Assembly: GCA_963641945.1 (NCBI GenBank)
Contig: CAVIDW010000003.1
Coordinates: 16,874 to 80,873 of the forward strand
From: a bacterium
Lineage (GTDB): Bacteria > Bacillota_I > Bacilli_A > RF39 > UBA660
Direction of reading: 5' to 3'
Length of the DNA: 64,000 nt
A model generated the notes under the pieces. The model was given only the letters and a program-made list of their open reading frames with translations. It had not been told where the DNA came from and did not search any database. Position 1 is the first letter of the stretch, and each line of letters opens with the position of its first letter. Below are positions 10,267 through 59,878 of the stretch, in pieces. The position numbers and the translations under genes were made by a program.

Positions 10267-10309
10267 GTTTTAAACCTAATTTTTTATTAAAGAATAGAAA
10301 GGAATATAT

Positions 10310-10804
10310 ATGAAAAAAATTTGGAATGAAATTAAAGATTATATATTTATTATTATAGCAGTAGTTTTAATACGTACATTTATTATAACTCCAGCCATAG
10401 TAGATGGTGGAAGTATGGATAATACTTTAGAAAATGGACAGCTAGTATTAATAAATAAATTTATTTATAGGTTTGATGATATTAATAGATTTGATATAGT
10501 AGTAATAAATAATGATGAAGACTCAGATAAAATAATTAAAAGAGTAATAGGTCTTCCAAATGAAATAATTGAATATAGAGATAATGTTTTATATATAAAT
10601 GGTAAAAAAGTCGAAGCTGAAATAGGTTTTATTGAAACAGAAGACTTTATAGCTAAAACAGGAGCAAATGAATATTTTGTTTTAGGAGACAATAGACCAA
10701 TATCTAAAGATAGTAGATATTTTGGTAGTTTCAAAAAAGATGACATAATAGGAAGAGTAACTATAAGATTATATCCATTTAGTAAATTCGGTTTGGTAAA
10801 ATAA
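10310..10804 (+). CDS. lepB: signal peptidase I (P-type, S26A)
   Basis: N-terminal TM helix, GGSMDNTL (catalytic Ser box), KRVIGLPNE, GDNRPISKDSR. Confidence 0.9.
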   Translation: MKKIWNEIKDYIFIIIAVVLIRTFIITPAIVDGGSMDNTLENGQLVLINKFIYRFDDINRFDIVVINNDEDSDKIIKRVIGLPNEIIEYRDNVLYINGKKVEAEIGFIETEDFIAKTGANEYFVLGDNRPISKDSRYFGSFKKDDIIGRVTIRLYPFSKFGLVK

Positions 10805-41030: not shown

Positions 41031-44000
41031 TTGACAAGATTAAATTATAAAAAAATTATATATCTTTTAATTACGTTAATTTTTATAATGGGTATTACTA
41101 TTGCTATTCCTTCATTAGCAAGATATAAAAATAGAGTAAACACAGAAATAAATGTATGGGATGGAACTGTAGCAACCAGTTTCAAAAGTGGAGAAGGCAC
41201 AGCTTCATCTCCATATATAATTTCAAATGGTAGTGAACTTGCTTATCTTTCTGATTCATTAAAGGCAAACAATTATGAAGGTATTTACTTTAAAATATCT
41301 AGTGATATTGTTTTAAATGATGGAAAATTTAATTATGAAGATAATAAATACATATATGAAAAAGACAATAATAAATATTATATAAAAGATGATAAATATT
41401 ATAGTGATATTGGATATACAAGCGAAGTTGGCTCATTAAATATTTTAAATTCACTAGAAGGATTTAAAGGTACATTTAATGGAGATTCCCATGTAATATC
41501 AGGATTATATATGTATAATGATGAATCAGCTTTATTTAAAAGTTTAAATGGAAAAGTAGAAAAATTATATATTAAAAATTCTCTTTTAACGGGAAATAAA
41601 GCTGCATCACTAGTAACAAATTCTACTTCATCAATTATAAATGAAATACTATTTGATGGATTTGTTATTAGTAATGCAGAAAGTAAGATAAAAAATGGAA
41701 CAATTTCTATTGATACAATAGAATTAAACAATAATTCAAAGACAATAACTATAAATATAGATGATAGTATAGAAAGTTATAATAATATTAGTTCAATTAC
41801 AGTAAATGGTGACTATAATATAGATACTAATAATGGTTCTGTTTTAATAAACGAAACACCTGTAACTGATAATCATTTTGAAATAACTACAACAAATAAA
41901 TATTTTACAATTACTGCTAGTTCTACAGAAATAACTAATATTGGATTTGATAATGTATCATATGAAATAACTTATAATGATAATATGGCTAGTGGAATAG
42001 CGTTAAACGTTACCAACACTGAACTTACAAATATTATCAATAAAGGAAAAATATATTCTAATAATGTTTCAAGTGGAATAGTTGGAATATTAAATAACTC
42101 AAATTTAACTAATGCTTATAATAATGGAGTAGTAAATACTTTAGGTGGAATAACTTCATATATAACAGGAAGTTCTAGTTTAATTAATGTATATAATACT
42201 TATGAAGAAACATCTTTGATTAATATAATAGAAAATTCAAATTTAAATATAATTGGCTCTTTTAATACATCAAATATTAAACCAATAAATAATAATATTA
42301 ATTCAGTATTAAGTATCCAAGACTCATATATAGTTGATAGTTCTTTAGACAGTACATCTAGTTTTACCATAAAAACGATAGAAGAATTAAAATCAGAAAA
42401 TATGAAGAATATATTCCATGAATATATTTCACTTGATGACTTAAATTCAAATATAGATAATGCTTGGATATATGAAAATGATAGTTATCCACTTTTATTT
42501 AATGATGATATAACTAATGGAATTGCAACTCTTCATATTAAAACATATTCATATGATAATTTTAGTAATGTTTTAGAGACATTTAATTATAAAGATAATG
42601 TTTCATTTGGTATAGAAGATAATGATGAATTAAATCCTAGTAGTAAATATTATTATATTCATAATAGTAATACGCCTCTATCAAAAACAGAACTTGAAAG
42701 CATTGAAAATTGGATAGAATATAATCAAATACAAACAATATCTGAAGAAGGAAATTATATAGTATATGTTAAACTAGTAAATAATAATAAAACATATTAT
42801 ATAAATTCAGATGTATTTGCTATTGATAAAACTATTCCAAGTGTTACATTAACATTAGATAATAATGTATGGAATTCATTAAATACCGAATTAAATACAA
42901 TAGATATAGATGGCGAAAAGGCATTTACAATTGATGCTGTTGACTTACTATCAGGAGTTAAATCAATAAAATATTATTTATCAAAAAATATATTAAGTGA
43001 AACAGAATTAAGTAGTGTAGAGTGGATTACTTATGATGAAAATGCAAAAATTAAAGATTTAGGTAAATATATCATATATGTAAAAGTAAGTGATAAAGTT
43101 TCAAATGAAACAATAATAAATAGTGATTATATAAATTATGATGGATATAAATTAACTATAACATCTGGTAATCATTTGAATAGTAATTTAAATATAACAG
43201 ATAAATCTAAATTAAAATTTAAATTTATATATGATGGAGAAAACAATGTATCTGGAACACATAGTTTAGTTTCAAACACACTATTGCCAAATGGAACAAT
43301 AATAACATTAAATGATCAAAATAAAATATATGAACATATAGTTGATAACATTTCAAACAATTATGGATATGAAACTAATAATTATGCTACATATAATTTT
43401 GTACTATTTAAAGAAAAAAATAAATATAATGATACTTACTATCAAGAAAGTAATAGCGTTGGAGTAGAAAATATAGAAGTTACAATAGACTTTAAAAATA
43501 CAAATTTAACAAATAATTTAGAAAATGTTACATTATCATTAAATATTGGCAATGATAGAAAAACACTACAAAGTAACATTAAAGAATTTAATGTATATAT
43601 AGATAGTGATGCTACACTTGAATTAACATCAACTTATGACAATAAAGAAATAGAATTTAATATAGATTCAACTATAAGTATAGAGTTATCTAGTGGTGTT
43701 AAATATGCTACCAAAGATTCACAATCAGTTTTAGATACAACATATGAAGATAAAATGCAGGGCATTGCAATTAAATTACTTGATAGCAATAATAATATTT
43801 TAGATAAAACATATTTAGAAAAATTAGTATTTACTATAGATGGAATAAATTATACACCAGATAATGATAATATAATAAGAATCCCATTTAGTGATACAAC
43901 ATCATTAACAACAAAATCATTATTAATTACAACATCAAAAAGTGATTTAAATCTAACTGAAGATAATATAAATATAGAAATATCTAATTATATCTCATAT

Positions 44001-44444
44001 GATGGAAAGTACTATAATGAATTAAATAACAGCATTATAATTCCAGTTGTAATAACAAATAATAATAAAACAACAACTGATTATGAATTTAGTATTACAG
44101 TAGCAGATGAATCAAGAATAATAAATAAGAAAGATGAAAGTACTACATTAGATTTTGATATTGTTACCAAAAACATAATAAATCCTACAATTAAAGTTTC
44201 ATTATATAAAAAAGATAAATTAACAGCATATGATCAAACATACAATATAGTTGACTTAAAAGAATATACAACATCCACATTACAATCTTTTACTACAAAT
44301 GTATATTTGACAGATATAAATGATACATTTACTTTAAATTTAATACCTAGTAAATTTGAAAGCAATGGATATAAATTTGTATTTGATTTATATAGTGATA
44401 ATGTAAAAATAAATACTATAGAAAAGTATTTTATTGCTAAGTGA
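41031..44444 (+). CDS. 1137-aa Asn/Ile-rich secreted giant protein with SipW-type signal, beta-helix-like N-terminal region and tandem Ig-like modules
   Basis: TTG start after an AGGAAG RBS. The signal reads ..AIPSLA/RYKNRVN. GEGTASSPYIISNGSELAYL..YFKISSDIVLNDG is typical of passenger/beta-helix adhesins. Two repeated ..EL.S(I/V)EW(I).Y..I...G.YI(V/I)YVK modules follow. Confidence 0.6.
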   Translation: MTRLNYKKIIYLLITLIFIMGITIAIPSLARYKNRVNTEINVWDGTVATSFKSGEGTASSPYIISNGSELAYLSDSLKANNYEGIYFKISSDIVLNDGKFNYEDNKYIYEKDNNKYYIKDDKYYSDIGYTSEVGSLNILNSLEGFKGTFNGDSHVISGLYMYNDESALFKSLNGKVEKLYIKNSLLTGNKAASLVTNSTSSIINEILFDGFVISNAESKIKNGTISIDTIELNNNSKTITINIDDSIESYNNISSITVNGDYNIDTNNGSVLINETPVTDNHFEITTTNKYFTITASSTEITNIGFDNVSYEITYNDNMASGIALNVTNTELTNIINKGKIYSNNVSSGIVGILNNSNLTNAYNNGVVNTLGGITSYITGSSSLINVYNTYEETSLINIIENSNLNIIGSFNTSNIKPINNNINSVLSIQDSYIVDSSLDSTSSFTIKTIEELKSENMKNIFHEYISLDDLNSNIDNAWIYENDSYPLLFNDDITNGIATLHIKTYSYDNFSNVLETFNYKDNVSFGIEDNDELNPSSKYYYIHNSNTPLSKTELESIENWIEYNQIQTISEEGNYIVYVKLVNNNKTYYINSDVFAIDKTIPSVTLTLDNNVWNSLNTELNTIDIDGEKAFTIDAVDLLSGVKSIKYYLSKNILSETELSSVEWITYDENAKIKDLGKYIIYVKVSDKVSNETIINSDYINYDGYKLTITSGNHLNSNLNITDKSKLKFKFIYDGENNVSGTHSLVSNTLLPNGTIITLNDQNKIYEHIVDNISNNYGYETNNYATYNFVLFKEKNKYNDTYYQESNSVGVENIEVTIDFKNTNLTNNLENVTLSLNIGNDRKTLQSNIKEFNVYIDSDATLELTSTYDNKEIEFNIDSTISIELSSGVKYATKDSQSVLDTTYEDKMQGIAIKLLDSNNNILDKTYLEKLVFTIDGINYTPDNDNIIRIPFSDTTSLTTKSLLITTSKSDLNLTEDNINIEISNYISYDGKYYNELNNSIIIPVVITNNNKTTTDYEFSITVADESRIINKKDESTTLDFDIVTKNIINPTIKVSLYKKDKLTAYDQTYNIVDLKEYTTSTLQSFTTNVYLTDINDTFTLNLIPSKFESNGYKFVFDLYSDNVKINTIEKYFIAK

Positions 44445-44456
44445 GGATGTGCGTAA

Positions 44457-44993
44457 ATGAAATATAAAATATTAAAATTATTAATAATTGCAGCACTAGC
44501 AGTATTTGGACTAGGTATTACATATTCAATATTTAGTTCAAATACACTAGCTTCTGGTGATCAAAAAATAGCAAAATTTATTTTTAATGCTGAAGAAGTA
44601 GATAAACTTTCTATCCCTATTACCGACTTAAAACCAGGATATACAAATGATTTTGATTTTTCAGTTAGTAATAGTAAGGACGAAAAAATAAGTGATGTAA
44701 CAATAGAATATCAAATGACTATAAAAACATTTCATTTGGTACCATTAAATATAGAATTATATAAAGTAGATGGAGAAAGTGAAACATTACTTATAACATG
44801 TGATGAAACATTTTCAAGAAATGAAGATAATGAACTTGTATGTAATCTTCCAATAGAAGAATTAGATTATCAAAAAGAAATCAAAAATAATTATAGATTG
44901 AAAATATCTTTCCCAGAAGAATATAATGATGAAGTATATTCTAATTTAGTAGATTATATTGATATTGAAATAAAAAGTTGGCAAAAGGTATAG
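44457..44993 (+). CDS. small TasA/camelysin-like secreted protein
   Basis: The signal reads ..GLGITYS/IFSSNT. LKPGYTNDFDFSVSN parallels TasA LKPGDKLTKDFQFEN. Confidence 0.6.
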   Translation: MKYKILKLLIIAALAVFGLGITYSIFSSNTLASGDQKIAKFIFNAEEVDKLSIPITDLKPGYTNDFDFSVSNSKDEKISDVTIEYQMTIKTFHLVPLNIELYKVDGESETLLITCDETFSRNEDNELVCNLPIEELDYQKEIKNNYRLKISFPEEYNDEVYSNLVDYIDIEIKSWQKV

Positions 44994-45004
44994 AAAGGAA
45001 TATT

Positions 45005-45880
45005 ATGAAAAAGAAAAAAAGTTTATTATTAATTCTAATCATATTAGCTAGTTTCTTATTCATAAGTTCTATTTCCTTAGCTAAATATGTATCAAATAAA
45101 GTATGGAATCAATATTTAAAATCACAAGGTTTTTACTTTGAAAGCGAAAATTTATCAACTACAGGTAAGACAACAGTAAATACTTTATGGAATGGTTCAC
45201 AAGTAGATTTAGTTATACAAAATAATAATTTGAATCAAATAACGGATACTGATATAGAATATGAAATGACTTGTAGTATAGAAGGTGAGCAAAATGATTC
45301 ATTAAAATGTTTATCAAATGGAAAAGATACATATATTGGTACATTATCTGCTACAAGTACATGTGTAAATGATTCTAATATTGATACAAGCACCTTAACT
45401 AAAACAGAATGTGAATTAGGAGGATATACTTGGCAAAATATGATTGCTAAGAATGACTTATATTTTGAAATAGTTAAAACAGATGAATCGTATGAATTAA
45501 GTGATGTAACAGTAAATGTAACCATTACGAGTAAAAAGCCATACAAAAAAACATTAAAAGGAACGTATATATTAAAGTATAATAATATTGAAGATGGAAT
45601 AGTAACATCATCTTATAAAAATTATACTGATTATAATAGATTAACTATAACAAATTCATATGATACAAATAAATGTATAAATATTTCATATGATGGGAAT
45701 ACAAAAACATTAGATGTTGATTCTAGTCTAGCTAAAGGTTCTAATCAAGAAGGCAATATTAATGAAATGGAATTTATTATAAAAGGTAAAACTAGTGAAA
45801 GTTTTATAGTATATGATAGTAGTGAAGAATTAACTGATAACTTTGTTATTAGTGTTATAGATGAATGTAAAGGTAGTTGA
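45005..45880 (+). CDS. secreted Cys-containing protein with SipW-type signal
   Basis: ATG at 45005 (MKKKKSLLL..). The signal reads ..SSISLA/KYVSNKV. Several Cys residues sit in the mature part. Confidence 0.55.
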   Translation: MKKKKSLLLILIILASFLFISSISLAKYVSNKVWNQYLKSQGFYFESENLSTTGKTTVNTLWNGSQVDLVIQNNNLNQITDTDIEYEMTCSIEGEQNDSLKCLSNGKDTYIGTLSATSTCVNDSNIDTSTLTKTECELGGYTWQNMIAKNDLYFEIVKTDESYELSDVTVNVTITSKKPYKKTLKGTYILKYNNIEDGIVTSSYKNYTDYNRLTITNSYDTNKCINISYDGNTKTLDVDSSLAKGSNQEGNINEMEFIIKGKTSESFIVYDSSEELTDNFVISVIDECKGS

Positions 45881-45922
45881 TATTAATTTTCAACTGTGAT
45901 AATATAGAATAGGTGGTAATGT

Positions 45923-46447
45923 ATGAAAGTATTAAATGCAATAAAAAAATTTTTTCTAGGAGTTTTAACATTTGTGTTCTTTGTTTACGCGATTGCAATG
46001 ACATTTCTATTATTAAATTTTAATGATTACGGAGTTACAGAAGTTGGGGATACATCTGTAATTATAATTAAAGATAAAATATCTAATGAAAATTATAAAA
46101 AAGGTGACATTGTACTTGTAGAAAATAAGCAAATGAAGAATATACAAGTAGGAGATGAGTTATTTGCTTATAGAATTGATTCTAAAGGTGCTGCAAATAT
46201 TGAAATAGGAACAGTTGGTCAAGTACATTTAGATAGCGAAGCAGTTACTTTTGAAAATGGAGACTCTTACTCATATGAATTCTTAATCGGAGAAGGAACT
46301 AAAACTATTGGTAGTTTTGGAACATTCTTGGGACTAGTCGAATCTAAATGGGGATTCTTATTCACAGTACTAGTACCAAGTTTCATATTCTTTGTATATA
46401 ATCTATATGCATTAATCGTAGAAATAAAATACGGAGATGAAGAATAA
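45923..46447 (+). CDS. SipW-like bitopic membrane protein lacking recognisable catalytic motifs (possible pseudo-peptidase)
   Basis: SipW-like size and topology (N-terminal and C-terminal TM helices) and a KGDIVLV..VGDELFAY beta-core pattern. GSMxP and THR(I/V) boxes are absent. Confidence 0.4.
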   Translation: MKVLNAIKKFFLGVLTFVFFVYAIAMTFLLLNFNDYGVTEVGDTSVIIIKDKISNENYKKGDIVLVENKQMKNIQVGDELFAYRIDSKGAANIEIGTVGQVHLDSEAVTFENGDSYSYEFLIGEGTKTIGSFGTFLGLVESKWGFLFTVLVPSFIFFVYNLYALIVEIKYGDEE

Positions 46448-46566: not shown

Positions 46567-46989
46567 ATGAAAAAATATTTAGCAATAACGTTTTTTGTAC
46601 TAACAATTGCAATTGTAACAAATTATGTCATAGTGAAAGCAGCAACATATCCATCGCCAGTAGGAACTTCATTCAGCAAAGAACTTGACAAAAACCAAGC
46701 ACAATACACATTTTGGAGAACAAAAACAAACTATTCAAGACAAACTTATGAAAACTTAGATGCTTTTACAAAATTAACAGATCCATGTCCTAATTGCAAA
46801 ATAGGTGCTAAACCATTTTTAGATAATGGTGATTTTCATTCTGGTATTGTAACAACATTAGGACATGTTGGAAAATTTAGTTCAACGTCTTCCACACCAG
46901 GAAATTACAGATTAAGCGTATGGAGAGTTGATGCAACATTGTTAACCACTTATCATTCTGCTCTTTGGACAATGAACAGTAATAATTAA
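46567..46989 (+). CDS. small secreted protein (140 aa) with CPNC motif
   Basis: Sec-type signal ..VIVKA/ATYPSP and AGGAGG RBS. I recognised no family motif. Confidence 0.6.
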   Translation: MKKYLAITFFVLTIAIVTNYVIVKAATYPSPVGTSFSKELDKNQAQYTFWRTKTNYSRQTYENLDAFTKLTDPCPNCKIGAKPFLDNGDFHSGIVTTLGHVGKFSSTSSTPGNYRLSVWRVDATLLTTYHSALWTMNSNN

Positions 46990-47039
46990 TAACAAAATAT
47001 AATGCAAATTTTCTTTATTTTAATTAATGGAGTGAAAAA

Positions 47040-47921
47040 ATGAAAAAAATAATATTTAATAATATACCTTTAATAATCAGTTTTTTATTTTTATTTTCAT
47101 TAGTTGTTTATGGACATTTGGAATATAAGAATGAGGTTCAAGGGATAAATGATACATATAATAAATATGTTACGGAATGTTCTCTATCCAATTTTGAAGA
47201 TGAAGAATATATAAGTTATTGCAATGATTTACTAGAAGACAAATATTATCCTAATTTTTTTTCAGAAGTTAGCTATATAATACATACAGTTAATTATATA
47301 TCAATGGTTTTATTTTTCACAGTAAGTATGCCAAGCTTATATTATATCTCAAAATATTTAAAAAATGGGATCATAAAAAACGAACTAACAAGAAAAACTT
47401 TTAAAAAATGTAAAATAAATTTACTTGCTATTTCATATAAAGGTGCATTAATATTACCTATAATTGCAATTGTAATGTTTGTTTTAAGTTATGCAAATAC
47501 AAAAACATTTGAAACATTTAACATGCAAGATATTATCTGGGAAAATTCGACTACAGCAAATCCATATTTATTTATAATAATGTATTTAATAAATATTACA
47601 ATCCATTCTATATTGTATTGTAATATATCATTATGCATAGTTAGAAAAAAACATAATTATTATGTTTCATCAATATTGTCTTACCTAACATTTATTGCAA
47701 TTGAATTGATACTAGAGCTAGGAATAAACACTATATTATTTGGAAAAATATTTAAAATAAACCTAGGTGTAATATTAAGTATATTTAATGTATTAGCATT
47801 TAATGACAGCTATGGAGTTTTGGCACCACTTGTAGTTCCAACTATTATGCTATGTATATCATATGTATTCTTATATTTTATGTATAAAGATAAAGAAAAA
47901 TTAATTATAGATTGTAATTAG
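47040..47921 (+). CDS. polytopic membrane protein, ABC-2-type permease-like
   Basis: TM1, then an extracytoplasmic loop, then about five further TM helices. It lies adjacent to the ABC ATPase. Confidence 0.5.
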   Translation: MKKIIFNNIPLIISFLFLFSLVVYGHLEYKNEVQGINDTYNKYVTECSLSNFEDEEYISYCNDLLEDKYYPNFFSEVSYIIHTVNYISMVLFFTVSMPSLYYISKYLKNGIIKNELTRKTFKKCKINLLAISYKGALILPIIAIVMFVLSYANTKTFETFNMQDIIWENSTTANPYLFIIMYLINITIHSILYCNISLCIVRKKHNYYVSSILSYLTFIAIELILELGINTILFGKIFKINLGVILSIFNVLAFNDSYGVLAPLVVPTIMLCISYVFLYFMYKDKEKLIIDCN

Positions 47922-47929
47922 GAGTTAAA

Positions 47930-48574
47930 ATGAAAATTGAATTTAAAAATGTTAATAAAAATTTTAAAAAAGTTGAGATATTGAAACAGATTAATTTAAA
48001 ATTCGAAACTGGAAATGTATATGGAATCTATGGTAGAAATGGCAGTGGTAAGAGTGTATTTTTGAAGATGATTGCAGGGTTTATGCTTCCGACGAGCGGA
48101 GAAATACTTTTTGATGGTGAAAATTTAAATTTTAAAAATGAATTTCCGAAAGATTTGAGAGCATTAATAGAAAATCCATCATTTTTCCCAGATTTAACTG
48201 GATTTGAAAATTTAAGATTATTAGCTAAAATACAAAATAGGATAGGAGATAACGAAATATTAGCAGCATTAGATATAGTTAACTTAACAGATGAAAAAGA
48301 TAAAAAATACAGTAAATACTCTTTAGGAATGAAACAAAAATTAGGAATAGCTCAAGCAATAATGGAAAATCCTAAAATATTAATATTAGATGAGCCATTC
48401 AATGGAATAGAGGAAAAAACAGTCAAAAAAATAATTGATTATCTAAATGAAATTAAAAAAGATAGAATAATAATAATAAGTACACATATTATAGAAGATC
48501 TGCATAAATTAACAGAAAAAATATATTATTTTGATAATAAGGAAGTTTATGAAAATATTAAAAAACAGAGTTGA
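47930..48574 (+). CDS. ABC transporter ATP-binding protein
   Basis: GRNGSGKSV Walker A, YSLGMKQKLGIAQAI signature and ILILDEPFNG Walker B. Confidence 0.85.
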   Translation: MKIEFKNVNKNFKKVEILKQINLKFETGNVYGIYGRNGSGKSVFLKMIAGFMLPTSGEILFDGENLNFKNEFPKDLRALIENPSFFPDLTGFENLRLLAKIQNRIGDNEILAALDIVNLTDEKDKKYSKYSLGMKQKLGIAQAIMENPKILILDEPFNGIEEKTVKKIIDYLNEIKKDRIIIISTHIIEDLHKLTEKIYYFDNKEVYENIKKQS

Positions 48575-49286
48575 ACAAATTCTAACCGTCAAGGATCATG
48601 TCTTAATATATTTGATTATTGTATTAGGGGTGTGTATACCGACATTTTCAGGACTAGCTAGCGAAAATTTTTGGGTAAGATTATATAGTATTAACACGAC
48701 TCCAATTTATTTAACAATGTTTTATTTATCTACAGGGTTATTCACTATGTATTCAATAAAGAACTATTGCTTAGAATACAATATACTGATAAGAAATACA
48801 AATTATAAGCAAATGATAGATGATAGTTTAAAAGTAATAATATTTGGGACAATATTTTTAAATATTATAGGTTTACTTTTAACTATAGCTGGAGCAGTAA
48901 TTTTCTGTTATAACGATTTTTCGGTAATTTCTCATCCGATATATAATATATCATTTATAAGTTACATGTTATTTTTTGCCTTAAGAGGGTTGACTATCTC
49001 CTGCATAATAAATGTAACGTTATATTTGTTATATATGCTATTTAAGGACTACGCAAATATAATTTTGATTGCAATTTGTTCAAGCTTTACAGCATTACCA
49101 TCTAAATCAGTAAAAATATTGCATTTTTATAACATGCCATTGTTGTTTCATAACTATTATTTTAATATAGAATATTCAACATTTTATTTAGAAATATTAT
49201 GTTCAACTATCGAGACGTTACTATTAATAGGAATATGCAAATTATTATATTATTTTGCGATAAAGAAGAAAAGAGACATTATATGA
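48549..49286 (+). CDS. polytopic membrane protein (putative ABC-2 permease component)
   Basis: ATG at 48549 follows an AAGGAAG RBS and overlaps the ATPase 3' end. About six TM helices. Confidence 0.5.
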   Translation: MKILKNRVEQILTVKDHVLIYLIIVLGVCIPTFSGLASENFWVRLYSINTTPIYLTMFYLSTGLFTMYSIKNYCLEYNILIRNTNYKQMIDDSLKVIIFGTIFLNIIGLLLTIAGAVIFCYNDFSVISHPIYNISFISYMLFFALRGLTISCIINVTLYLLYMLFKDYANIILIAICSSFTALPSKSVKILHFYNMPLLFHNYYFNIEYSTFYLEILCSTIETLLLIGICKLLYYFAIKKKRDII

Positions 49287-49912
49287 AAATACAATCTAAA
49301 ATATTATTAGAAAGATTCAAAAAGAATATTTTGTATATTACAATATACTTTATAAGCTTAATATTTGGAGTAATACTGTTTTATTTAAGAAACAAACAAA
49401 TAGAATTTAATATAGATGAATTCTTAGTACTTATTAATTTTCCAAAATTCTCAAATTTAAGTTACTTATATGAATTAATTAAAATATATGAAATTGGATT
49501 ATTAGTGTATTTAGTATATGACTATTATACTTATGATTTAAATTATTCATTAGATAATATTATGATAAGAGAAAGTGTAAATAAATGGTATTTAAATAAA
49601 ATAATAATATTCAGTATATTTATAACTTTATTTAAAATATTTGAAGTATCAATATTATATTTAATTCATAGTAGTGAAGTATCATTTGATATTAATTTTT
49701 ATATCTATTCAATCATATTTGATATATTTATTTTATTAATCATCACAACATTATATAACTATAGAAGAAGCATTTTAAACTATATATTTTTATCAATAAT
49801 ATTAATTTATATATATTTAAGATTTAATGTAATAATAGTTCTTATTTTGTCTATAATTATCGCTATTTTTAATTATAAAACATTAAATTTCACCAAGAAT
49901 TTTACTGAATAA
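49283..49912 (+). CDS. polytopic membrane protein (putative ABC-2 permease component)
   Basis: ATG at 49283 forms an ATGA overlap with the upstream stop. About six TM helices. Confidence 0.5.
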   Translation: MKIQSKILLERFKKNILYITIYFISLIFGVILFYLRNKQIEFNIDEFLVLINFPKFSNLSYLYELIKIYEIGLLVYLVYDYYTYDLNYSLDNIMIRESVNKWYLNKIIIFSIFITLFKIFEVSILYLIHSSEVSFDINFYIYSIIFDIFILLIITTLYNYRRSILNYIFLSIILIYIYLRFNVIIVLILSIIIAIFNYKTLNFTKNFTE

Positions 49913-49916
49913 AATG

Positions 49917-49938
49917 AACTAGACTTTAGTCTAGTTTT
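49917..49938 (+). terminator. hairpin terminator after the ABC module
   Basis: AACTAGAC-TTTA-GTCTAGTT followed by TT. Confidence 0.55.
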
Positions 49939-50020: not shown

Positions 50021-52144
50021 ATGAAAAAAATGAATAAAGTTGTTGAAAAAGTAGCAAATGTATCATTAAATATACTAATCGGAATATTTGCAATCATATT
50101 GCTTATATTTATATATAAAGGATTTCAAGTTAAAATTTTAAAGAATGATTTTAATTTCTTTGGATATACAATGTTTGAAGTTCAAACAGGAAGTATGAAA
50201 AGTTATATTAATGCTGGAGATTGGGTAGTAGTAAAACTTACAAAGGATGTAGATATTAATGATGTCATTACATTTAAGCAAGATGGAAATAATATTACAC
50301 ATAGGGTAATTGAAATATATAATGGAACCTATATTACCAAAGGGGATGCTAATAATTCGAAAGATGACCCAATAGATCAAAGTCAAATAATTGGAAAGGT
50401 AGTGAAAGTTCTTAGCGGATTTGGAATACTGCGAAAAACAATATTTAATCCAGCAGTAATAATTGCTTTAATAATAACTTTGTTATTATTTAATTTAACT
50501 TTTAAGAATGATGTGGAAAGTATGAAAAAGAAAAAACAAATAAGAATTATAGTAAATAAGATAATAAATCTCTTTAAAAATATTAAGAAAGATGAATTTA
50601 GTGATTTGGATAAATTTGATGAATCTAAGAAAGAAAGAATAGAAGAAGAAAAAATCATCAAGCAAGAAATACTTGATGAGGGTGACATTCAAAAAGAGCC
50701 AAAGAAAGAAGAACTAAGTAAAACATCAATGTTTAGAGTTGTTAGTGTTAGAAAAGAAGGACATAAACCTAAAGAAGAATCAAAAATAGAAGAAAAAATT
50801 GAAGCAGATGAAGAAATAATTGAATCAGAAAAAACTCCTGAGCAAATTGAAGAAGAATTAAGTAAAACTTCTATGTTTAGAATAATTAAAGCTGATACAA
50901 GTGATATAGACAAAAAAATAAAAAAGATAATTAAAAAAGAAAAAAAGGAAAATAAAGATAATAACGTCTATACAGTAACTCTAGAAGCAGAAAAAGTAGT
51001 TAAAAAACTTGATAAAAATATGGGAAAAAACGAAAGAAGTGAAAAGAGTGAATCTATAAATTCAAATGATTTAAAAATCAAAACATATAATACAAAAGCT
51101 AAGACAATAATAGAAAAAGCAATTAAAGTAAAAAAACTAGAAATAAATCAAGTAATCGATGTTATATTAGAAGGTCAAAAATCATATGTAATTAAATCAA
51201 GTTTTAGAACAGACTTTATAGATGCATATATTACTAGTAAATATTATTTGGCAGAAAATTCAAATAGTATTGGTGATGTAAAAGAATCTATCAGTGCTTT
51301 AAGTAAAAAACTAACAAAGAAGAACATTAGAGATGAAAAACAAAAGTTAATTATTAAAACATATGAAGATTTAATGCTTTTATATTCAAATATTGATAAA
51401 TACAATAAAGATGAAGAAAATAGAATAACTTTTTATCAAAAGACATTAAGAAAATATAGTAATTGGGATATAGAATATATTAATTATTTAGTTTATAGAA
51501 TTATTGAAATACAAAATAAATGTTTAGATGAAATGGAAGAAAGTTATAAAAAACTAGAAACAGATACATTTGAAATAACATTTAATAAAATATCAAATAA
51601 TAAAGATTTATATTCAGCAGTATTAAATCATAATATATCATTTAGTAGTGTATATAGCGATTATATAGTTGATAAAACATATAATGAAGGAATCGTATCA
51701 GAAGATAAAGTAGTAGTTCTTATAACATTATTATCAAGTAGAATTGCAAAAGATATAACGAACTATGATTATAATAAAAAATATGTAGTTTATATGCCAA
51801 GCGGATTATATGAAAAAGAAAAGAAAATGGCTGGATTATTAAAATTAATTGAAGATGAATATGCTAAAAATCATATCTATATATTATTAGATGCTAATAC
51901 GTTGATATTGAACAAGAAAATAACAACGAATCTTAAAAAACAAGGATATAATTTTGCAGTTGTATTAAATGATGAAAGCAAAATTAATGAAAAAAACATA
52001 GGTGCATTGTATTTAGCAGATTATATATTTGTAAGTAAAGATATTAAAAACATATCAAATATAATTGGAGAAGTACCTAATGAACTTTTAGAAAAAATTG
52101 TAAAAGAAAATATAAAAAAATTGGGTGATTTTGGAGGCGAATAA
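50021..52144 (+). CDS. SipW-type (ER-type S26B) signal peptidase fused to a ~540-aa cytoplasmic extension
   Basis: The N-terminal ~160 aa comprise a TM helix, QTGSMKS (Ser box), ITHRVIE (His box), TKGDANNSKDDP (Asp box) and a second TM helix. A K/E-rich linker with duplicated EELSKTSMFR(V/I) follows, then a globular domain of about 330 aa of unknown family. Confidence 0.7.
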   Translation: MKKMNKVVEKVANVSLNILIGIFAIILLIFIYKGFQVKILKNDFNFFGYTMFEVQTGSMKSYINAGDWVVVKLTKDVDINDVITFKQDGNNITHRVIEIYNGTYITKGDANNSKDDPIDQSQIIGKVVKVLSGFGILRKTIFNPAVIIALIITLLLFNLTFKNDVESMKKKKQIRIIVNKIINLFKNIKKDEFSDLDKFDESKKERIEEEKIIKQEILDEGDIQKEPKKEELSKTSMFRVVSVRKEGHKPKEESKIEEKIEADEEIIESEKTPEQIEEELSKTSMFRIIKADTSDIDKKIKKIIKKEKKENKDNNVYTVTLEAEKVVKKLDKNMGKNERSEKSESINSNDLKIKTYNTKAKTIIEKAIKVKKLEINQVIDVILEGQKSYVIKSSFRTDFIDAYITSKYYLAENSNSIGDVKESISALSKKLTKKNIRDEKQKLIIKTYEDLMLLYSNIDKYNKDEENRITFYQKTLRKYSNWDIEYINYLVYRIIEIQNKCLDEMEESYKKLETDTFEITFNKISNNKDLYSAVLNHNISFSSVYSDYIVDKTYNEGIVSEDKVVVLITLLSSRIAKDITNYDYNKKYVVYMPSGLYEKEKKMAGLLKLIEDEYAKNHIYILLDANTLILNKKITTNLKKQGYNFAVVLNDESKINEKNIGALYLADYIFVSKDIKNISNIIGEVPNELLEKIVKENIKKLGDFGGE

Positions 52145-52146
52145 TT

Positions 52147-53709
52147 ATGAATACATTCTTACGATTTTTTTACGAATTTATATCAATATTTTTTGATGGA
52201 GTAGAAAAAATTGTAAAAGGCTTTATAAATGGCTTTATGCAAATGTTTAATTATGGAGATTATAAACAAATAATAAGCAATTATAAAGGAAGTTTTAGTG
52301 GAATAGAATGGGTATTTGTAGGATTAGGTGTGGCATTTTTTGTTCTCCTAGTTGGAGCAATTTTAGTACTTATATTTATGGGTATTAGAAAAATATTTAG
52401 ACTTAGAAAAGAGAAATTAAATCAAGATGAATTATTAGATGAAATTGGGGAACTAAATGATAAAGTTAAGCAATTGATGAAAGAAAAAGATGAATTAATG
52501 GCCATGAAAGTTTCTCAATTAGGATTAAATCCAAAAGATGAGCCAACAGAAGAACAAAAAGAAGAAAATAAAAATGCTGATGGTTATACTGAAGAAGAAC
52601 AAAATACAGAAGACCTTGATGAAGCTGGAAATGTTCGTTTTCCTAAACTTGTTAGAATCGATCAAGAATATAAGAATTATAAAATTAAAAATTATAATAA
52701 CAACTTCTCTTTAGAAGAATTAATAGATAACTTTAGATGTTTTGCTGCAAGTCAACTTCATTTATATTATGAAGCACATTTGTTAAGAGCATTCATTGGA
52801 GGTCTTGCTTGTGGTAAATTAATTATCTTACAAGGTATTTCTGGTACAGGTAAAACATCTTTAGCATATGCTTGGGGTAAATTTGTTAAAAATGATTCAT
52901 GCGTAGCATCAGTTCAACCATCATGGAGAGATAAAACTGAATTACTTGGATACTTTAATGAATTTACTAAAAAGTTTAACGAGTCAAACGTTTTAGAAGA
53001 GTTATACTTAGCCGGATATGATGATAATGTTCATACAATAATACTTGATGAAATGAATATAGCCAGAGTTGAATATTATTTTGCAGAAATGCTATCTATA
53101 TTAGAATTACCTCAAAGAAGTGAATGGCAGATTGAACTTGTATCTACAATATGGCCAGATGATCCAAAAAGGTTGGATAAAGGAAAACTTCATTTACCTG
53201 GAAACTTATGGTATATTGGAACAATCAATAATGATGACTCAACATTTATGGTAACAGATAAAGTATACGATAGAGCAATGCCTATTGATATAAATAAAAA
53301 GATAGATCCATTTGAATGTAGAGAACAAGAAGCAGTTGCTATAAACTCAAGTTATTTAGAAAGTTTATTTAAACAAGCATTCGAAGATCATAAATTATCA
53401 CAAAAATCAATTAAAATGGTTGAAGAAATTGATAATTATGTTATCGCTCATTTTAGAGTTGCATTTGGTAATCGTATTATGAAACAATTAAGAGACTTTA
53501 CAGCAGTTTATGTAGCTAGTGGTGGAGATGAAGTAGAAGCAATAGACTATTTTCTAGCACAAAAAGTATTAAGAAAATTTGACCAATTAAATATTGCTCA
53601 AATAAGAGATGAAATAGATGGTTTTATTAAATATCTTGATGCATCAACTGGTAAAGGCAAAATGAAAGAATGTATTGCATTTTTAGAAAGATTAAAGAAA
53701 TCAGTTTAG
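52147..53709 (+). CDS. membrane-anchored McrB-family AAA+ GTPase homologue
   Basis: TM helix (WVFVGLGVAFFVLLVGAILVLIFMGI) followed by RKIFRLRKEK, then a coiled coil. The core is McrB-like: ILQGISGTGKTS, VQPSWRDKTELLGYF, IILDEMNIARVEYYFAEMLSILE, NLWYIGTINNDDS (NxxD), YDRAMPIDI. Confidence 0.75.
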   Translation: MNTFLRFFYEFISIFFDGVEKIVKGFINGFMQMFNYGDYKQIISNYKGSFSGIEWVFVGLGVAFFVLLVGAILVLIFMGIRKIFRLRKEKLNQDELLDEIGELNDKVKQLMKEKDELMAMKVSQLGLNPKDEPTEEQKEENKNADGYTEEEQNTEDLDEAGNVRFPKLVRIDQEYKNYKIKNYNNNFSLEELIDNFRCFAASQLHLYYEAHLLRAFIGGLACGKLIILQGISGTGKTSLAYAWGKFVKNDSCVASVQPSWRDKTELLGYFNEFTKKFNESNVLEELYLAGYDDNVHTIILDEMNIARVEYYFAEMLSILELPQRSEWQIELVSTIWPDDPKRLDKGKLHLPGNLWYIGTINNDDSTFMVTDKVYDRAMPIDINKKIDPFECREQEAVAINSSYLESLFKQAFEDHKLSQKSIKMVEEIDNYVIAHFRVAFGNRIMKQLRDFTAVYVASGGDEVEAIDYFLAQKVLRKFDQLNIAQIRDEIDGFIKYLDASTGKGKMKECIAFLERLKKSV

Positions 53710-53720
53710 GAGTGAATTAA

Positions 53721-54842
53721 ATGGCAAAGACAAGTATAGAAATTGACAAAGAAATAAAAAAACAATGTAATCTTTTTCTAAAAAATACAGAATCAAATAT
53801 GCATTATCTTGCAGATTTAGATAATACATTAAGTTCTACAAAATGGTTAGAAATAATGGAAGAAACATTTCCATATTTAGATACATATATTAGAGCTCCA
53901 AAAGTAGCATTAATTACTGAAACAGAAACACAACCCATTGAAAAAGCAAAAAAAATTGGAGTAGAAAGTGTTAAAGATTTAGCAAAACATAGTAATTATA
54001 TTGAAAATGTAGTTAGTGATAAAGATATTAAACCATCAAAAATACTTGTCTTACTTCGTGAAGAAACATACAATACATACGAGAATAGATTTATTTATAC
54101 ATTGGTTCATGAAACTTTAAGATTTATAATTTTAATGGAAGAAAAACTAAAAAAATTAGAATCAAAAGATCAAAAACAATTAGAGTATACATCTAATACA
54201 AATAATGGAAAAGATAAAATTAAAATATGCTTAAGAATCAGTGCTGTTGAAATAGATAAAGGATCAAAAAATAGTGATTTTGAAGCACAAGTTAGTAATA
54301 TCAAAAAAAGATTAAAATTACTAAAGGAATATATAACTTTATGGCAAAGATGTGAAATGATGGAATCACTTAAAAAAGCACATGTTCCATTTGTAACATC
54401 TCCAATTAAAAAGACTAATTTAATATTAAAAAATCCAAACTTTAAAGAAGCAACAAAACTATGGAATTTTTTAATGAATTACTTAGATAATGAATCAAAT
54501 AAAAATAAACTATATGATACAAATGGTAATCAATTCTTAAGAAATATATTAGATGAATCATTTTTGATGGATTATTATGTATTAGATGCAATCTCAAATA
54601 TAAGAAAGAATCAAAGAGATAAGCTTACACAATATGCTGTATTAATGATTAGTGAACAAGTTAAAAAATCAATGGAAATATTACTATATAATGGAATAAA
54701 GGTATCTGAAGAAAAACTATTACAAATGGTAAATATAGAAATAAATAATGATAAAAGTAAAATGGCACTAGGAAGTAGTGATATAAAGAAAAAATTTGAA
54801 AAAGAAATGAATGAATACCTGGCAAAGGTTCAAAATTTATAG
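53721..54842 (+). CDS. McrC-like (N-terminal domain only) partner protein with no recognisable PD-(D/E)xK nuclease motif
   Basis: It occupies the McrC position 12 nt after the McrB-like gene. ETYNTYENRFIYTLVHETLRFI resembles the McrC EDTLANRIIKSTL region, and LKNPNFKEATKLWNFLMNY is also present. I see no D..(D/E)xK motif equivalent to IIDAKYY. Confidence 0.5.
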   Translation: MAKTSIEIDKEIKKQCNLFLKNTESNMHYLADLDNTLSSTKWLEIMEETFPYLDTYIRAPKVALITETETQPIEKAKKIGVESVKDLAKHSNYIENVVSDKDIKPSKILVLLREETYNTYENRFIYTLVHETLRFIILMEEKLKKLESKDQKQLEYTSNTNNGKDKIKICLRISAVEIDKGSKNSDFEAQVSNIKKRLKLLKEYITLWQRCEMMESLKKAHVPFVTSPIKKTNLILKNPNFKEATKLWNFLMNYLDNESNKNKLYDTNGNQFLRNILDESFLMDYYVLDAISNIRKNQRDKLTQYAVLMISEQVKKSMEILLYNGIKVSEEKLLQMVNIEINNDKSKMALGSSDIKKKFEKEMNEYLAKVQNL

Positions 54843-54851
54843 GAGCAAATA

Positions 54852-55424
54852 ATGAAAAAAATAAAAAATAATAAAGTACTAAAAATTATACTTAAAGTTA
54901 TTAAAGCTTGTATAATTATAACATTAATAGCATTTATATTAGTTGTTTTTTTACAAAGATTCAGTAATAATAAATTATCATTATTTAACTATAGAATCTT
55001 TGCAGTAGCAACTGGTTCTATGCAACCAAAATATAATATTGGTGATGTATTAATATCAAAAGATGTAGATCCAAGTAAATTAAAAGTTGGAGATAATATT
55101 AGTTATTTAGGAACTAAATCAAATTTTAAAGGAAAAGTTATAACGCACCAAATAGTTAAAATTGAAACAGATGAAAATGGTAAATTATTATTCTATACAA
55201 AAGGTATAGCAAATCTAGTAGAAGATCCAGTAGTTGAAGAAGGTCAAGTGTATGGAAAAGTTATTTATAAAACAATTTTATTATCATGGTTATATAAATT
55301 TGTTAGTACAAGTACTGGGTTTGGATTAATAATAGTTATTCCAATAATAATAATTATTGGATATGAAATACTTGCAACATTACTAGAAAAAAAGGAAGAA
55401 GAAATTAACTCAAAAAGAAAATAG
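54852..55424 (+). CDS. SipW-type signal peptidase homologue with altered Asp box
   Basis: N- and C-terminal TM helices, ATGSMQPKY (Ser box) and ITHQIVK (His box). TKGIANLVEDP stands where SipW has KGDNN. Confidence 0.7.
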   Translation: MKKIKNNKVLKIILKVIKACIIITLIAFILVVFLQRFSNNKLSLFNYRIFAVATGSMQPKYNIGDVLISKDVDPSKLKVGDNISYLGTKSNFKGKVITHQIVKIETDENGKLLFYTKGIANLVEDPVVEEGQVYGKVIYKTILLSWLYKFVSTSTGFGLIIVIPIIIIIGYEILATLLEKKEEEINSKRK

Positions 55425-55440: not shown

Positions 55441-56688
55441 ATGAAAAAAAGACATAAATTATATATAAAACTTAATTTAGTTTCATTAATTTTCATTGTT
55501 GTGTCTTTAATTTTTACAACACTTGCATGGTTTGCATATAGTGGTTTATCTTCCTTAGATACAGAAATCGGTGTAAAAGCATGGTATATAGAATTAACTA
55601 AGAATGGCGAAGCAGTTGCTAATGATATAGTTATTTCAATTCCAACAATTTATCCAGGAATGGATACAATAACTGAAAAGATAAATATTGAAAATTTTGG
55701 TGATTCCGTTGCACAGGTAAAATATGAAATTTTATCAGCAAGAATACTTGACACTAAATATGATACAGAAAATGATAAAAGTATTGTTTCAGAAGATTTA
55801 GAAACATCATTATCTCATGATTATCCATTTCATATAAATATAAGTTTGAGTGATTATGTTGTTGATTCAAATGGTGGAACAGCAACATTTAAAGTAAGCG
55901 CATCTTGGCCATTAGATGGTGGAAATGACAGTGCTGATAGTGAATGGGGAACGAAAGCATATGAATTCTCTCAAGCAGAAAAAAATAAACAAGCAACTGA
56001 TTCAAATTATGCTATAGACTCACCAATTCAAGTTGTAATAAAAGTAAGTGCTGAGCAATATGTTGATAGTGATACATCAAGTTCAAGAGATTATGCATAT
56101 GGTAATACAATATTATATAATGTAGTAGCAGATGATTTTTGTTCTAAAGTTAGTGACACATGTATAAGTACAACAGTAATTGATGAAAACAATAAAATAG
56201 GCGATGAAACAATTACTGTAATACCAAATATATTAACAAAATTTACAGAGGCAACTTATGATAATTATAATAATACATTAAATAGTATTACTTCAAACTG
56301 GAATGTAGAATATAGAGCTTTAACAGCAGATGATGTATTAAAAATTATTTCAAGAGATATAGAATCATCAAATATGATTAGTTCTTCATTATCTAATATA
56401 ATAATTGGAAAAATGAATTCATCAGAATTAATAAATCAAACATTGAACAATGCAGTTTTACTAGATGGACATTTTGAATTTATTAATGATAATTTTAAAT
56501 TTTTATATAATTCTTCAAGTACATGTTATTGGACAATGACAGAATATAATACAAGTAAAGGTTACGCTTTCTCAAAGATAGATAGTAGTAAATCTAAATT
56601 ATATGGAGAAAATAAAACCACTTCTTGTCAAGTATTACCAGTAATAATAATAACAAAAAAAGAAATTATAAAGGAAGAAAATGGTTAA
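55441..56688 (+). CDS. TasA-like secreted protein with SipW-cognate-type signal and extended C-terminal domain
   Basis: The signal reads ..IFTTLA/WFAYSGLS. IYPGMDTITEKINIENFGDSVAQVKYEI and IQVVIKVSAEQY are TasA-like strands. Confidence 0.6.
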   Translation: MKKRHKLYIKLNLVSLIFIVVSLIFTTLAWFAYSGLSSLDTEIGVKAWYIELTKNGEAVANDIVISIPTIYPGMDTITEKINIENFGDSVAQVKYEILSARILDTKYDTENDKSIVSEDLETSLSHDYPFHINISLSDYVVDSNGGTATFKVSASWPLDGGNDSADSEWGTKAYEFSQAEKNKQATDSNYAIDSPIQVVIKVSAEQYVDSDTSSSRDYAYGNTILYNVVADDFCSKVSDTCISTTVIDENNKIGDETITVIPNILTKFTEATYDNYNNTLNSITSNWNVEYRALTADDVLKIISRDIESSNMISSSLSNIIIGKMNSSELINQTLNNAVLLDGHFEFINDNFKFLYNSSSTCYWTMTEYNTSKGYAFSKIDSSKSKLYGENKTTSCQVLPVIIITKKEIIKEENG

Positions 56689-59121: not shown

Positions 59122-59147
59122 AAGGAACTTGTGTTCCTTTTTCTTTT
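59122..59147 (+). terminator. intrinsic terminator after lon
   Basis: AAGGAAC-TTGT-GTTCCTT followed by a T-rich run. Confidence 0.8.
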
Positions 59148-59194
59148 GTTCTAAATATATGATTACCTCATATATTTAACTGAAAGGAGAATAT

Positions 59195-59878
59195 ATGAAA
59201 GAAATTATTCCATTAAAAAAAGATATTATTTTTAAAACTAAAATAGGAGAACTAACAAATATTAGTTTAGATCATGATTATAAAATTAATGAAGATATTA
59301 TAGAAGGTACAGTAGTAATAAGTGGTACATATAAACTAACTGAAGCAAGTGTTCAAGAAGAAGAATTCTATTACACAATTCCATTTAGTGTAGCTATATC
59401 AAAAAGAATAGATAAAGATACTATTAATATAGAAATAGATGACTTTAAATATGAACCTTTAAAAGATGTTTTAAAAGTAAATATAGATTTGCTTATTACA
59501 TGTGATGAAAAAGAATCATTAGAAAGTATGCTTAGTAAAGAAGAAAATATAATTGAAGAAAGTGAAGATGATAAAGAAATGAAAAAAGATGATTTAGATG
59601 ATTATATAGATAACTATTTTAATAGTGAAGAAGTTAAAAAAGAAGAAAATATCAAAGAAAGCAAAATTAAAATAGAAGATAATATTAGTAATATAACTAA
59701 TAATTTTGTTAATGAAAATAAATACTATACATACAAAGTTTATATAGTAAGAAGTGGAGATACTATAGAAAATATATGTAATAAATATAATACAACTTTA
59801 GAAGAATTAAAACTTTATAATAATATAGGTGAATTAAATGTAGGAGATAAAATAATTATCCCACAAGTAAATGACTAA
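59195..59878 (+). CDS. SpoVID-like protein (SPOCS-like N-terminal domain, acidic linker, C-terminal LysM)
   Basis: N-terminal ..GELTNISLDHDYKINEDIIEGTVVISGTY.., an acidic E/D/K linker, and C-terminal LysM (YKVYIVRSGDTIENICNKYNTTLEELKLYNN..VGDKIIIP). Confidence 0.5.
   Translation: MKEIIPLKKDIIFKTKIGELTNISLDHDYKINEDIIEGTVVISGTYKLTEASVQEEEFYYTIPFSVAISKRIDKDTINIEIDDFKYEPLKDVLKVNIDLLITCDEKESLESMLSKEENIIEESEDDKEMKKDDLDDYIDNYFNSEEVKKEENIKESKIKIEDNISNITNNFVNENKYYTYKVYIVRSGDTIENICNKYNTTLEELKLYNNIGELNVGDKIIIPQVND

Follow-up and report, generated by a model that had tools for sequence, protein, structure and literature searches.

A SipW-type signal peptidase fused to a conserved cytoplasmic domain and encoded beside a McrB-like GTPase in uncultured Bacilli

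Why should a SipW-type signal peptidase carry more than 500 additional residues on the cytoplasmic side of the membrane, and why should its gene lie directly in front of one encoding a McrB-like GTPase? Both questions are raised by a single gene in a 64,000-nucleotide stretch of bacterial DNA (the window), which a first-pass annotation made from the letters alone had read as a signal peptidase with a built-in cytoplasmic regulatory or docking module. The gene encodes a genuine, conserved fusion protein, and comparative data suggest that its C-terminal domain (C-domain) is a third cytoplasmic component, beside a McrB-like GTPase and a DUF2357 protein, of a McrBC-derived module of the CoCoPALM kind. 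The explanation towards which we lean, with slightly better than an even chance of being right, is that the fused peptidase processes cargo whilst the C-domain docks on the McrB/McrC-like GTPase complex, coupling the outside of the cell to the inside.

50021..52144, forward strand: the whole fusion gene, 707 residues, SipW-type peptidase plus tether plus cytoplasmic domain (open reading frame (ORF), NCBIfam, homologue alignment)

The reading frame opens with ATG and contains one stop codon, at its end. A database search returned 420 relatives, and the best 120 of these, drawn from JGI, ENA, NCBI and Logan assemblies, are nearly all 670-800 residues long and cover the full query at 36-94% identity; about 180 full-length homologues, of 631-808 residues, come from independent assemblies. 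A scan of one genome per GTDB species gave 104 relatives, from which 80 loci were kept for comparison, nearly all of them in metagenome-assembled genomes labelled Bacilli, Mollicutes, Tenericutes or Bacillota and obtained from samples of gut, rumen and digester. Of 66 species-level loci with a complete gene, 63 have it as a single unbroken ORF of 631-808 residues and three have short ORFs at its position. It could be argued that assembly or annotation has joined a SipW gene of ~190 residues to a separate gene downstream, as both halves do occur unfused in other lineages and three loci have the short ORFs just mentioned; set against this are the continuous genes of 63 of 66 independent genomes and more than 120 clustered proteins of 670-800 residues from the four data sources, together with the tether motif described below, which is under purifying selection, its copies differing only synonymously. 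The comparative data refute such an artefact, the chance of which is practically negligible, and exclude the missed stop or frameshift whose possibility the first-pass annotation had raised. Median identity of the fusion gene across loci is 37%, against 65% for the McrB-like gene, and a promoter scan upstream gave no excess over the shuffled expectation in this AT-rich DNA.

The peptidase occupies residues 1-161 of the fusion protein, with the following predicted parts.

50051..50119, forward strand: transmembrane (TM) helix 1, ~residues 11-33, after the Lys-rich N-terminal stretch MKKMNKVVEK, which the positive-inside rule places in the cytoplasm (Kyte-Doolittle hydropathy; AlphaFold2 (AF2) helix 2-39)
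50150..50425, forward strand: extracytoplasmic S26B catalytic domain of the endoplasmic reticulum (ER)/archaeal type, with S58, H94, D109 and D115 (TIGR02228, Pfam S24, alignment, PDB profile, Foldseek)
50435..50503, forward strand: TM helix 2, ~residues 139-161, followed by KNDVESMKKKKQIR on the cytoplasmic side (hydropathy; AF2 helix 144-161)

The catalytic signatures are TGSM (S58), ITHRV (H94) and TKGDANNSKDDPID (D109, D115), and none of the four residues varies among 54 aligned homologues or 85 locus-derived sequences. Residues 17-155 match TIGR02228, the model of archaeal/ER-type signal peptidase I, with 66.8 bits (cutoff 51.85), and Pfam Peptidase_S24 matches with 25.5 bits (cutoff 23.3); a profile of the 54 homologues searched against PDB had human SEC11A/SEC11C as its sole matches, and Foldseek places the N-terminal domain in the LexA/UmuD/SipA peptidase fold. 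The Bacillus SipW equivalog NF046067 failed, at 48.7 bits against a cutoff of 190, and by these matches the domain is SipW-type but not a SipW orthologue. SipW itself uses S47, H87 and D106 and has no Ser-Lys dyad (PMC8767453); as the invariant S58, H94, D109 and D115 match its required Ser-His-Asp, the fused peptidase is very probably an active SipW-type enzyme. Only two hydrophobic segments are present, at ~11-33 and ~139-161, with a Lys-rich stretch on each predicted cytoplasmic flank, and hydropathy, charge distribution and the AF2 model predict two TM helices around an external catalytic domain with both termini in the cytoplasm. The 546 residues counted after TM helix 2 would therefore be cytoplasmic, in agreement with the first reading of a full catalytic set and two helices followed by ~540 residues; an extracellular placement of the C-terminal domain was rejected on hydropathy and charge pattern.

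The first third of this extension is a K/E-rich linker, in which the sole landmark is a repeated motif.

50504..51055, forward strand: disordered K/E-rich cytoplasmic tether, residues 162-345 (pLDDT, the predicted local distance difference test; composition, alignment)
50708..50749, forward strand: motif copy 1, EELSKTSMFRVVSV, residues 230-243 (repeat scan, motif hidden Markov model (HMM))
50852..50893, forward strand: motif copy 2, EELSKTSMFRIIKA, residues 278-291, 48 residues (144 nt) past copy 1 (repeat scan)

Residues 165-345 are 22% K and 18% E, and the AF2 pLDDT below 50 over ~189-345 predicts disorder. Both the length and the sequence of the tether vary among homologues, the motif being the only element that can be aligned. 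The duplicated EELSKTSMFR noticed at first reading does occur in this K/E-rich linker exactly twice, at residues 230-239 (nt 50708-50737) and 278-287 (nt 50852-50881), and the DNA of the two copies shows three differences, all synonymous. A tandem duplication of 144 nt can be followed on either side, between 50696-50744 and 50840-50888 at 80% identity and between 50619-50655 and 50763-50799 at 76% identity. Both copies fit E-[DE]-[DE]-L-S-K-T-S-M-F-R-V-I-S-V-D, and the consensus of 246 instances is E-[DE]-[DE]-L-[S/E/D]-K-T-[S/A]-[M/V/L]-[F/Y]-R-[V/I/M]-[I/V]-S-[V/A/I]-D, with Leu conserved in 99%, Lys in 97%, and Thr and Arg in 100%. The motif HMM, applied to SipW fusions of other genomes as had been proposed, hit 167 of 183 fused proteins, of which 130 have at least two copies, customarily spaced by ~37 residues; it found none in the 38 standalone relatives of the C-domain described below, and the motif is absent from every other ORF of the window and the 80 loci. 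Its conservation in homologues of just 35-45% overall identity puts the repeat far beyond chance, and it is a genuine short linear motif that belongs to the tethered architecture alone.

Beyond the tether lies the globular domain of ~330 residues that could not be assigned at first reading; that it is a conserved, folded domain holds, and it can now be described, from its predicted structure, as a helical bundle joined to an EAL-like barrel that lacks the EAL catalytic residues.

51062..51556, forward strand: helical-bundle subdomain, residues 348-512 (AF2 model m02661ff21ed0, Foldseek)
51569..52120, forward strand: EAL-like alpha/beta barrel subdomain, residues 517-700 (AF2 model, Foldseek, conservation)

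Folded alone with an alignment of 61 sequences, residues 340-707 gave model m02661ff21ed0 at pLDDT 89.2 and a predicted TM-score (pTM) of 0.85, in which the folded region runs from 348 to 707, a helical bundle coming before an alpha/beta unit made of a beta-hairpin and then five beta-alpha repeats. The Foldseek comparison suggested by the first-pass annotation was run with this model against PDB and returned essentially EAL domains only: nearly all of the top 50 matches are EAL domains at probability ~1.0 (among them Bd1971, FimX, LapD, MorA, PA3825, YahA, MucR, BifA and YdiV), with weak statistics (E 2e-3 to 5e-2, TM-score 0.4-0.52, identity ~10%), and the full-length fusion model again had EAL neighbours. 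The helical bundle, 348-512, had no structural or sequence match, nor was there any high-probability non-EAL Foldseek match. At the level of sequence the C-terminal 540 residues gave no match in Pfam, NCBIfam, PADLOC, a PDB phmmer search or a PDB profile hmmsearch; PDB matches of the C-terminal part to ApcF and a phosducin-like protein (E 0.03-0.14) were treated as chance. Mapped by eye from strand order on alignments, without structural superposition, the EAL signature positions show LNHNISF in place of EALxR, an invariant P593 instead of the Asn, 'LND/FNK' where DDFG would stand and 'DYxFxD' where DxxKxD would, which suggests that the residues binding metal and cyclic di-GMP (c-di-GMP), namely the EALxR Glu and Arg, the Asn, ExxE, DDFG, the Lys and the EGVE Glu, have been lost. 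The predicted structure is thus EAL-like in fold and not that of an EAL-family member, and probably represents a module of the YdiV/FimX/LapD type that binds a protein or a ligand. A patch conserved throughout the family consists of L535 together with Y545-S546, G557, E561-D562-K563, Y588, K599, K602 and G642, the residues from Y545 onwards being common to fused and standalone forms; judged from the order of secondary-structure elements, they would sit in loops and helices after strands 2 and 3.

The two genes that follow the fusion gene encode the module to which it appears to belong.

52147..53709, forward strand: McrB-like AAA+ GTPase whose N-terminus has a hydrophobic/TM segment and a putative coiled coil (NCBIfam, PDB, PADLOC, synteny)
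53721..54842, forward strand: McrC N-terminal-domain (DUF2357) protein (Pfam PF09823, E 6.6e-10)

An exhaustive HMMER search with residues 330-707 against 1.84 billion representatives returned 272 relatives of the C-domain, the majority of them fused to a SipW domain and 38 standing alone at ~330 residues. Four unfused loci (L081, L082, L083 and L085) were examined, and in all four the standalone gene lies directly upstream of a McrB-like orthologue (46-67% identity to the window's gene); the DUF2357 gene comes next in L081 and L083, and the contigs of L082 and L085 stop inside or just after the McrB-like gene. L082 has, in addition, a separate SipW gene of ordinary length. In the fused loci the McrB-like gene starts less than 200 nt after the fusion gene in 64 of 66, mostly at -3 to +5 nt, so that the position immediately upstream of a membrane-tethered GTPase noticed in the window is borne out across the family; in the window itself the Shine-Dalgarno sequence GGAGG of the McrB-like gene falls within the last codons of the fusion gene. 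Because the domain is fused to the peptidase in one lineage and encoded by a separate gene elsewhere, it provides a Rosetta-stone link between the peptidase and the GTPase module, and this pattern, read from gene order, is the best evidence available for a joint function of the peptidase and the McrB/McrC-like module. Of the built-in regulatory or docking module proposed at the outset, the conserved cytoplasmic extension stands and comparative genomics backs docking or coupling, whilst docking and regulation as such remain proposals. The suggestion that the duplicated motif itself contacts the McrB-like ring or the McrC-like protein is weakened, since unfused systems retain the trio of domain, McrB-like and DUF2357 proteins with no copy of the motif (0 of 38).

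Two of the unfused loci show further variation. In L081 (JGI metagenome 3300028242) the gene at 951-2075 encodes a SipW with an extracellular, camelysin-like domain fused to it through a third TM helix, which looks like an active SipW joined to its own apparent substrate. In L083 the McrB-like gene at 8988-10497 was called as two ORFs, of 231 and 268 residues, which together make up the whole protein; such a call could come from a frameshift, from faulty assembly or from a gene that is truly split.

The GTPase of the window matches McrB NF008457 at E 1.7e-5, its core aligns to the E. coli McrB structures 6hz4, 6ut6 and 7vsr (6hz4 at E 1e-4), and it has the Walker A motif GISGTGKT and the Walker B motif ILDEMN. 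A far better match than the E. coli McrB model is the PADLOC phage-defence candidate model PDC-M26A, at E 3.7e-37. HMMER aligns its signature I-N-N-D-D without gaps to E. coli N-T-A-D, and this can equally be read as NxD plus a second D, the form described for that clade (Bell et al. 2024). At the N-terminus a hydrophobic segment, ~56-80, is followed by a heptad-like charged stretch, for which the sole match is a weak one to FtsL_Actino (E 0.0087, below cutoff). In the DUF2357 protein of 373 residues the Pfam scan shows only residues 8-163 and no nuclease domain. The pair therefore departs from canonical McrBC, with no PD-(D/E)xK nuclease detected and a hydrophobic/coiled-coil McrB N-terminus. 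The McrB-like gene is the best conserved and slowest evolving of the cluster.

That cluster comprises nine genes, found by tblastn of the window genes against the 80 loci and syntenic in ~50-70 species-level genomes. Its first half encodes a 1137-residue surface protein, a 178-residue camelysin-like protein, a 300-residue protein and a 174-residue SipW-like protein; a variable gap follows, and then the fusion gene, the McrB-like GTPase, the DUF2357 protein, a 190-residue SipW and a 415-residue protein.

41031..46447, forward strand: upstream half of the cluster, with the 1137-residue, 178-residue camelysin/TasA-like and 300-residue proteins (N-terminal signal anchors) and the 174-residue apparent pseudo-peptidase (synteny in 47-58 of 80 loci)
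54852..55424, forward strand: second SipW-type peptidase, 190 residues (TIGR02228, 82.8 bits; orthologue profile)
55441..56688, forward strand: secreted/anchored protein of 415 residues with an invariant TLAWFAYSG signal-anchor motif, a putative SipW substrate (ORF, synteny, orthologues)

Counting the fusion there are three SipW-family genes in the cluster. Ser and His of the 190-residue SipW are retained across 71 orthologues; the Asp of 'GD(N)N' is gone (Ile in the window) but the later 'eDP' Asp remains, and to judge from these substitutions the catalytic competence of the enzyme may be altered. The 174-residue protein (45923-46447) has neither the Ser of GSM nor the His of THR in the window and 58 orthologues, and its C-terminal TM region (S.WGFLF..P.F..YaLivEiKYG) is highly conserved. 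This has the look of a conserved pseudo-peptidase, one that might act as a chaperone in the way of S. pyogenes SipA. Four proteins of the cluster (41031-44444, 44457-44993, 44978-45880 and 55441-56688) are candidates for cargo, each with an N-terminal basic stretch, a hydrophobic helix and an aromatic motif, in order PSLARY, GITYSIF, ISLAKY and TLAWFAY (T/S-L/Y-A/S-x-[YF]-like), and their anchors presumably resemble TasA/camelysin signal peptides. In orthologues of the 178-residue and 415-residue proteins the motifs are invariant, and such motifs may define a cleavage or recognition site for the three SipW paralogues. Searches with the 415-residue protein gave no family match.

Between the two halves of the cluster, at 46567-49912, the window encodes a secreted protein of 140 residues, three polytopic membrane proteins and an ATP-binding cassette (ABC) ATPase, the best match of the last being the lantibiotic-protection model TIGR03740 at 175 bits, below cutoff. 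This block is missing from almost all of the 80 related loci, and a terminator-like hairpin lies at its end (49917-49936). Downstream of the cluster, at 56806-60692, genes follow that are syntenic in just two to four related loci: one for a Lon protease (739 bits with TIGR00763), one for a LysM/SpoVID-like protein and one whose YsxE-like, spore-coat-kinase-like product scores 81 bits, under the cutoff. They hint that this low-GC lineage (~25%) may sporulate.

Systems of this kind have been given a name. The CoCoPALM systems, which on the sequence features the nine-gene cluster appears to match, were named in one paragraph, with analysis deferred to a later publication (Bell et al. 2024). Common to both are a McrB-like GTPase, a DUF2357 protein next to it and an association with the signal peptidase family, represented here by three SipW-family genes; the TM/coiled-coil anchor at the N-terminus of the GTPase, FtsB-like in the named systems, may be shared as well. 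That paper mentions neither a cytoplasmic domain fused to a peptidase, nor a motif in a tether, nor the EAL-like/helical accessory protein and the camelysin-like cargo set; its supplementary text contains no CoCoPALM, EAL or SipW, and no follow-up CoCoPALM paper was found in the accessible literature.

A SipW with a second function in the cytoplasm has its nearest precedent in B. subtilis SipW, which is bifunctional, its 20-residue cytoplasmic C-terminal tail having a separate signalling role (PMC8767453). The enzyme (tapA-sipW-tasA) shares with the fusion protein the ER-type S26B class and Ser-His-Asp, and its dedicated cargo are the TasA-family fibre proteins; in place of a short tail the fusion protein has 546 cytoplasmic residues, with repeated motifs and a folded domain of 360 residues, and a McrBC-like module as putative partner, which B. 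subtilis lacks.

For the barrel, at 517-700, the best structural matches of the predicted fold include proteins whose biology is of interest here. LapD controls the periplasmic protease LapG, FimX regulates type IV pili via PilZ, and YdiV/RflP binds FlhD without c-di-GMP. Their catalytic residues are lost as well, and a common logic may be seen in the tying of a cytoplasmic EAL-like module to an extracytoplasmic protease or to the biogenesis of a surface appendage. The C-domain differs from them in that no sequence homology is detectable, c-di-GMP-binding residues are apparently not retained and there is no GGDEF, HAMP or PilZ partner; a unique helical bundle precedes its barrel, and it is attached directly to a protease. 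S. pyogenes SipA/LepA (PDB 4n31), without which pili do not polymerise, is a homologue of signal peptidases that serves as a pilus assembly factor; it shares the signal-peptidase fold, being a Foldseek match of the N-terminal domain, and may have a counterpart in the catalytically dead paralogue at 45923-46447. It works with sortases on LPXTG pilins, whereas the cluster encodes no sortase and the catalytic residues of the fused protein are intact. With E. coli McrBC the module has in common the AAA+ GTPase core and, in the partner, the McrC N-terminal domain, and it differs in that a predicted membrane anchor replaces the DNA-binding domain, no nuclease is detected and the genes lie within a secretion/fibre cluster.

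On the explanation that we prefer, the external peptidase would cut off the SipW-type signal anchors from the camelysin/TasA-like surface proteins encoded with it, whilst the cytoplasmic domain docks onto the McrB-like/McrC-like GTPase complex. Such docking would physically couple external subunit processing and fibre assembly to a GTP-driven or GTP-gated internal machine, and the repeated E-[DE]-[DE]-LSKTSMFRVISVD motifs could serve as extra, multivalent docking sites, needed or useful only once the domain has become tethered. Physical docking, the substrates and the roles of the GTPase and the motif are the parts of this mechanism that we infer. A bolder version is that the cluster encodes a surface-fibre (pilus) assembly machine of undescribed kind, in which a McrBC-type motor is coupled mechanically or allosterically, via the helical/EAL-like adaptor, to the processing and polymerisation of TasA/camelysin-like subunits, LSKTxxFR latches arraying several peptidases around a hexameric motor; this we offer tentatively, and think it rather doubtful as a whole.

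A number of observations weigh against the preferred explanation. The EAL-like assignment comes from structure prediction: no Pfam EAL domain (PF00563) was found at E<=10 in the window protein or in 61 fused and standalone relatives, profile searches of PDB with the C-domain gave no EAL, and hhalign in global and local modes reached a probability of 0.1-0.2% against E. coli EAL domains, the profile being a shallow one of six sequences (PdeH, PdeK, PdeG, PdeL, BluF and YdiV). The assignment of substrates draws on N-terminal motifs read by eye and on weak camelysin matches, Peptidase_M73 being sub-threshold in 7 of 13 orthologues of the 178-residue protein (best E 6e-4), and the profile of that protein searched against PDB found no TasA. 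The tether and its motifs are of low confidence in the AF2 single-chain model, and as unfused systems are without the motif it cannot be the primary link between domain and GTPase. Finally, adjacency and fusion imply functional linkage and not necessarily direct binding.

The coupling could also run in another direction, the EAL-like barrel sensing a cyclic or linear nucleotide or some other metabolite and switching the external peptidase via TM helix 2, much as in LapD-LapG, with the McrB-like neighbour incidental or downstream. The degenerate c-di-GMP receptors FimX and LapD are indeed among the nearest structural neighbours, and a strongly conserved polar patch (Y545, S546, E561, D562, K563, Y588, K599 and K602) would, from its inferred location, lie where EAL domains bind their ligand; yet the EAL metal and c-di-GMP residues are not conserved by eye (invariant Pro593 at the Asn, for example), no EAL signal was found at the level of sequence, a disordered tether of 180 residues is a poor conduit to TM helix 2, and the standalone C-domains are not joined to any peptidase. 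We regard such an inside-out regulator as unlikely, although it is compatible with the preferred explanation. It is also conceivable that the tether motifs place the peptidase by recruiting a general machine, such as the divisome proteins that read the FtsZ peptide, Sec and the signal recognition particle (SRP), or an FHA-type phosphothreonine reader. The arrangement acidic-acidic-L-x-K-T-x-hydrophobic-[FY]-R is loosely like the FtsZ C-terminal peptide (E. coli DYLDIPAFLRK), a likeness that we take as a lead only; it extends to ~4 of 10 positions and the hallmark Pro is missing, and no ftsZ or ftsA from which to read the lineage's own peptide was found in the DNA examined. A fully conserved Thr with [FY] at +3 would suit a phosphothreonine reader, but the conserved cluster has no FHA or kinase gene. 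The dispensability of the motif in unfused systems and the possibly FtsB/FtsL-like TM helix and coiled coil of the McrB-like partner (weak FtsL match; Bell et al. 2024) also speak for general recruitment, to which on balance we give only a small chance.

A smaller chance still is given to anti-phage defence of the McrBC/CoCoNuT kind, in which the peptidase fusion would act as membrane sensor or effector. In favour are the McrB-like GTPase itself, with its match to PDC-M26A, and the related CoCoNuTs, which are predicted defence systems (Bell et al. 2024). The McrC-like protein, however, has no detected nuclease domain and the McrB N-terminus is a predicted membrane anchor and not a DNA-binding domain; the remaining seven proteins have no significant PADLOC match, save a weak one to KwaA for the 190-residue SipW (E 0.0014), and signal peptidases and secreted camelysin-like proteins make up most of the cluster. 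A patchy distribution is usual for defence islands, whereas this cluster is syntenic and vertically conserved in ~64 or more species-level genomes, the GTPase evolving slowest.

McrBC is the classic DNA restriction motor, and the CoCoPALM branch is the only proposed exaptation of it to the cell envelope, for which a one-paragraph mention has been available. Whilst the type of system has already been named, the accessible literature has neither the peptidase-adaptor fusion nor the tether motif, and does not recognise the adaptor as a conserved, EAL-like third component. The fusion supplies direct genomic evidence, of the Rosetta-stone kind, for joint action of a signal peptidase predicted to be active and a GTPase module; it also brings to light a conserved third component in the cytoplasm, a family of ~270 representatives, helical plus EAL-like, for which there is no Pfam model, and a tether motif that is sharply defined and experimentally tractable. 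The system occurs in ~100 species-level genomes of uncultured, low-GC Bacilli from gut, rumen and digester, and because it is conserved so widely it probably forms one of the main surface structures of that lineage.

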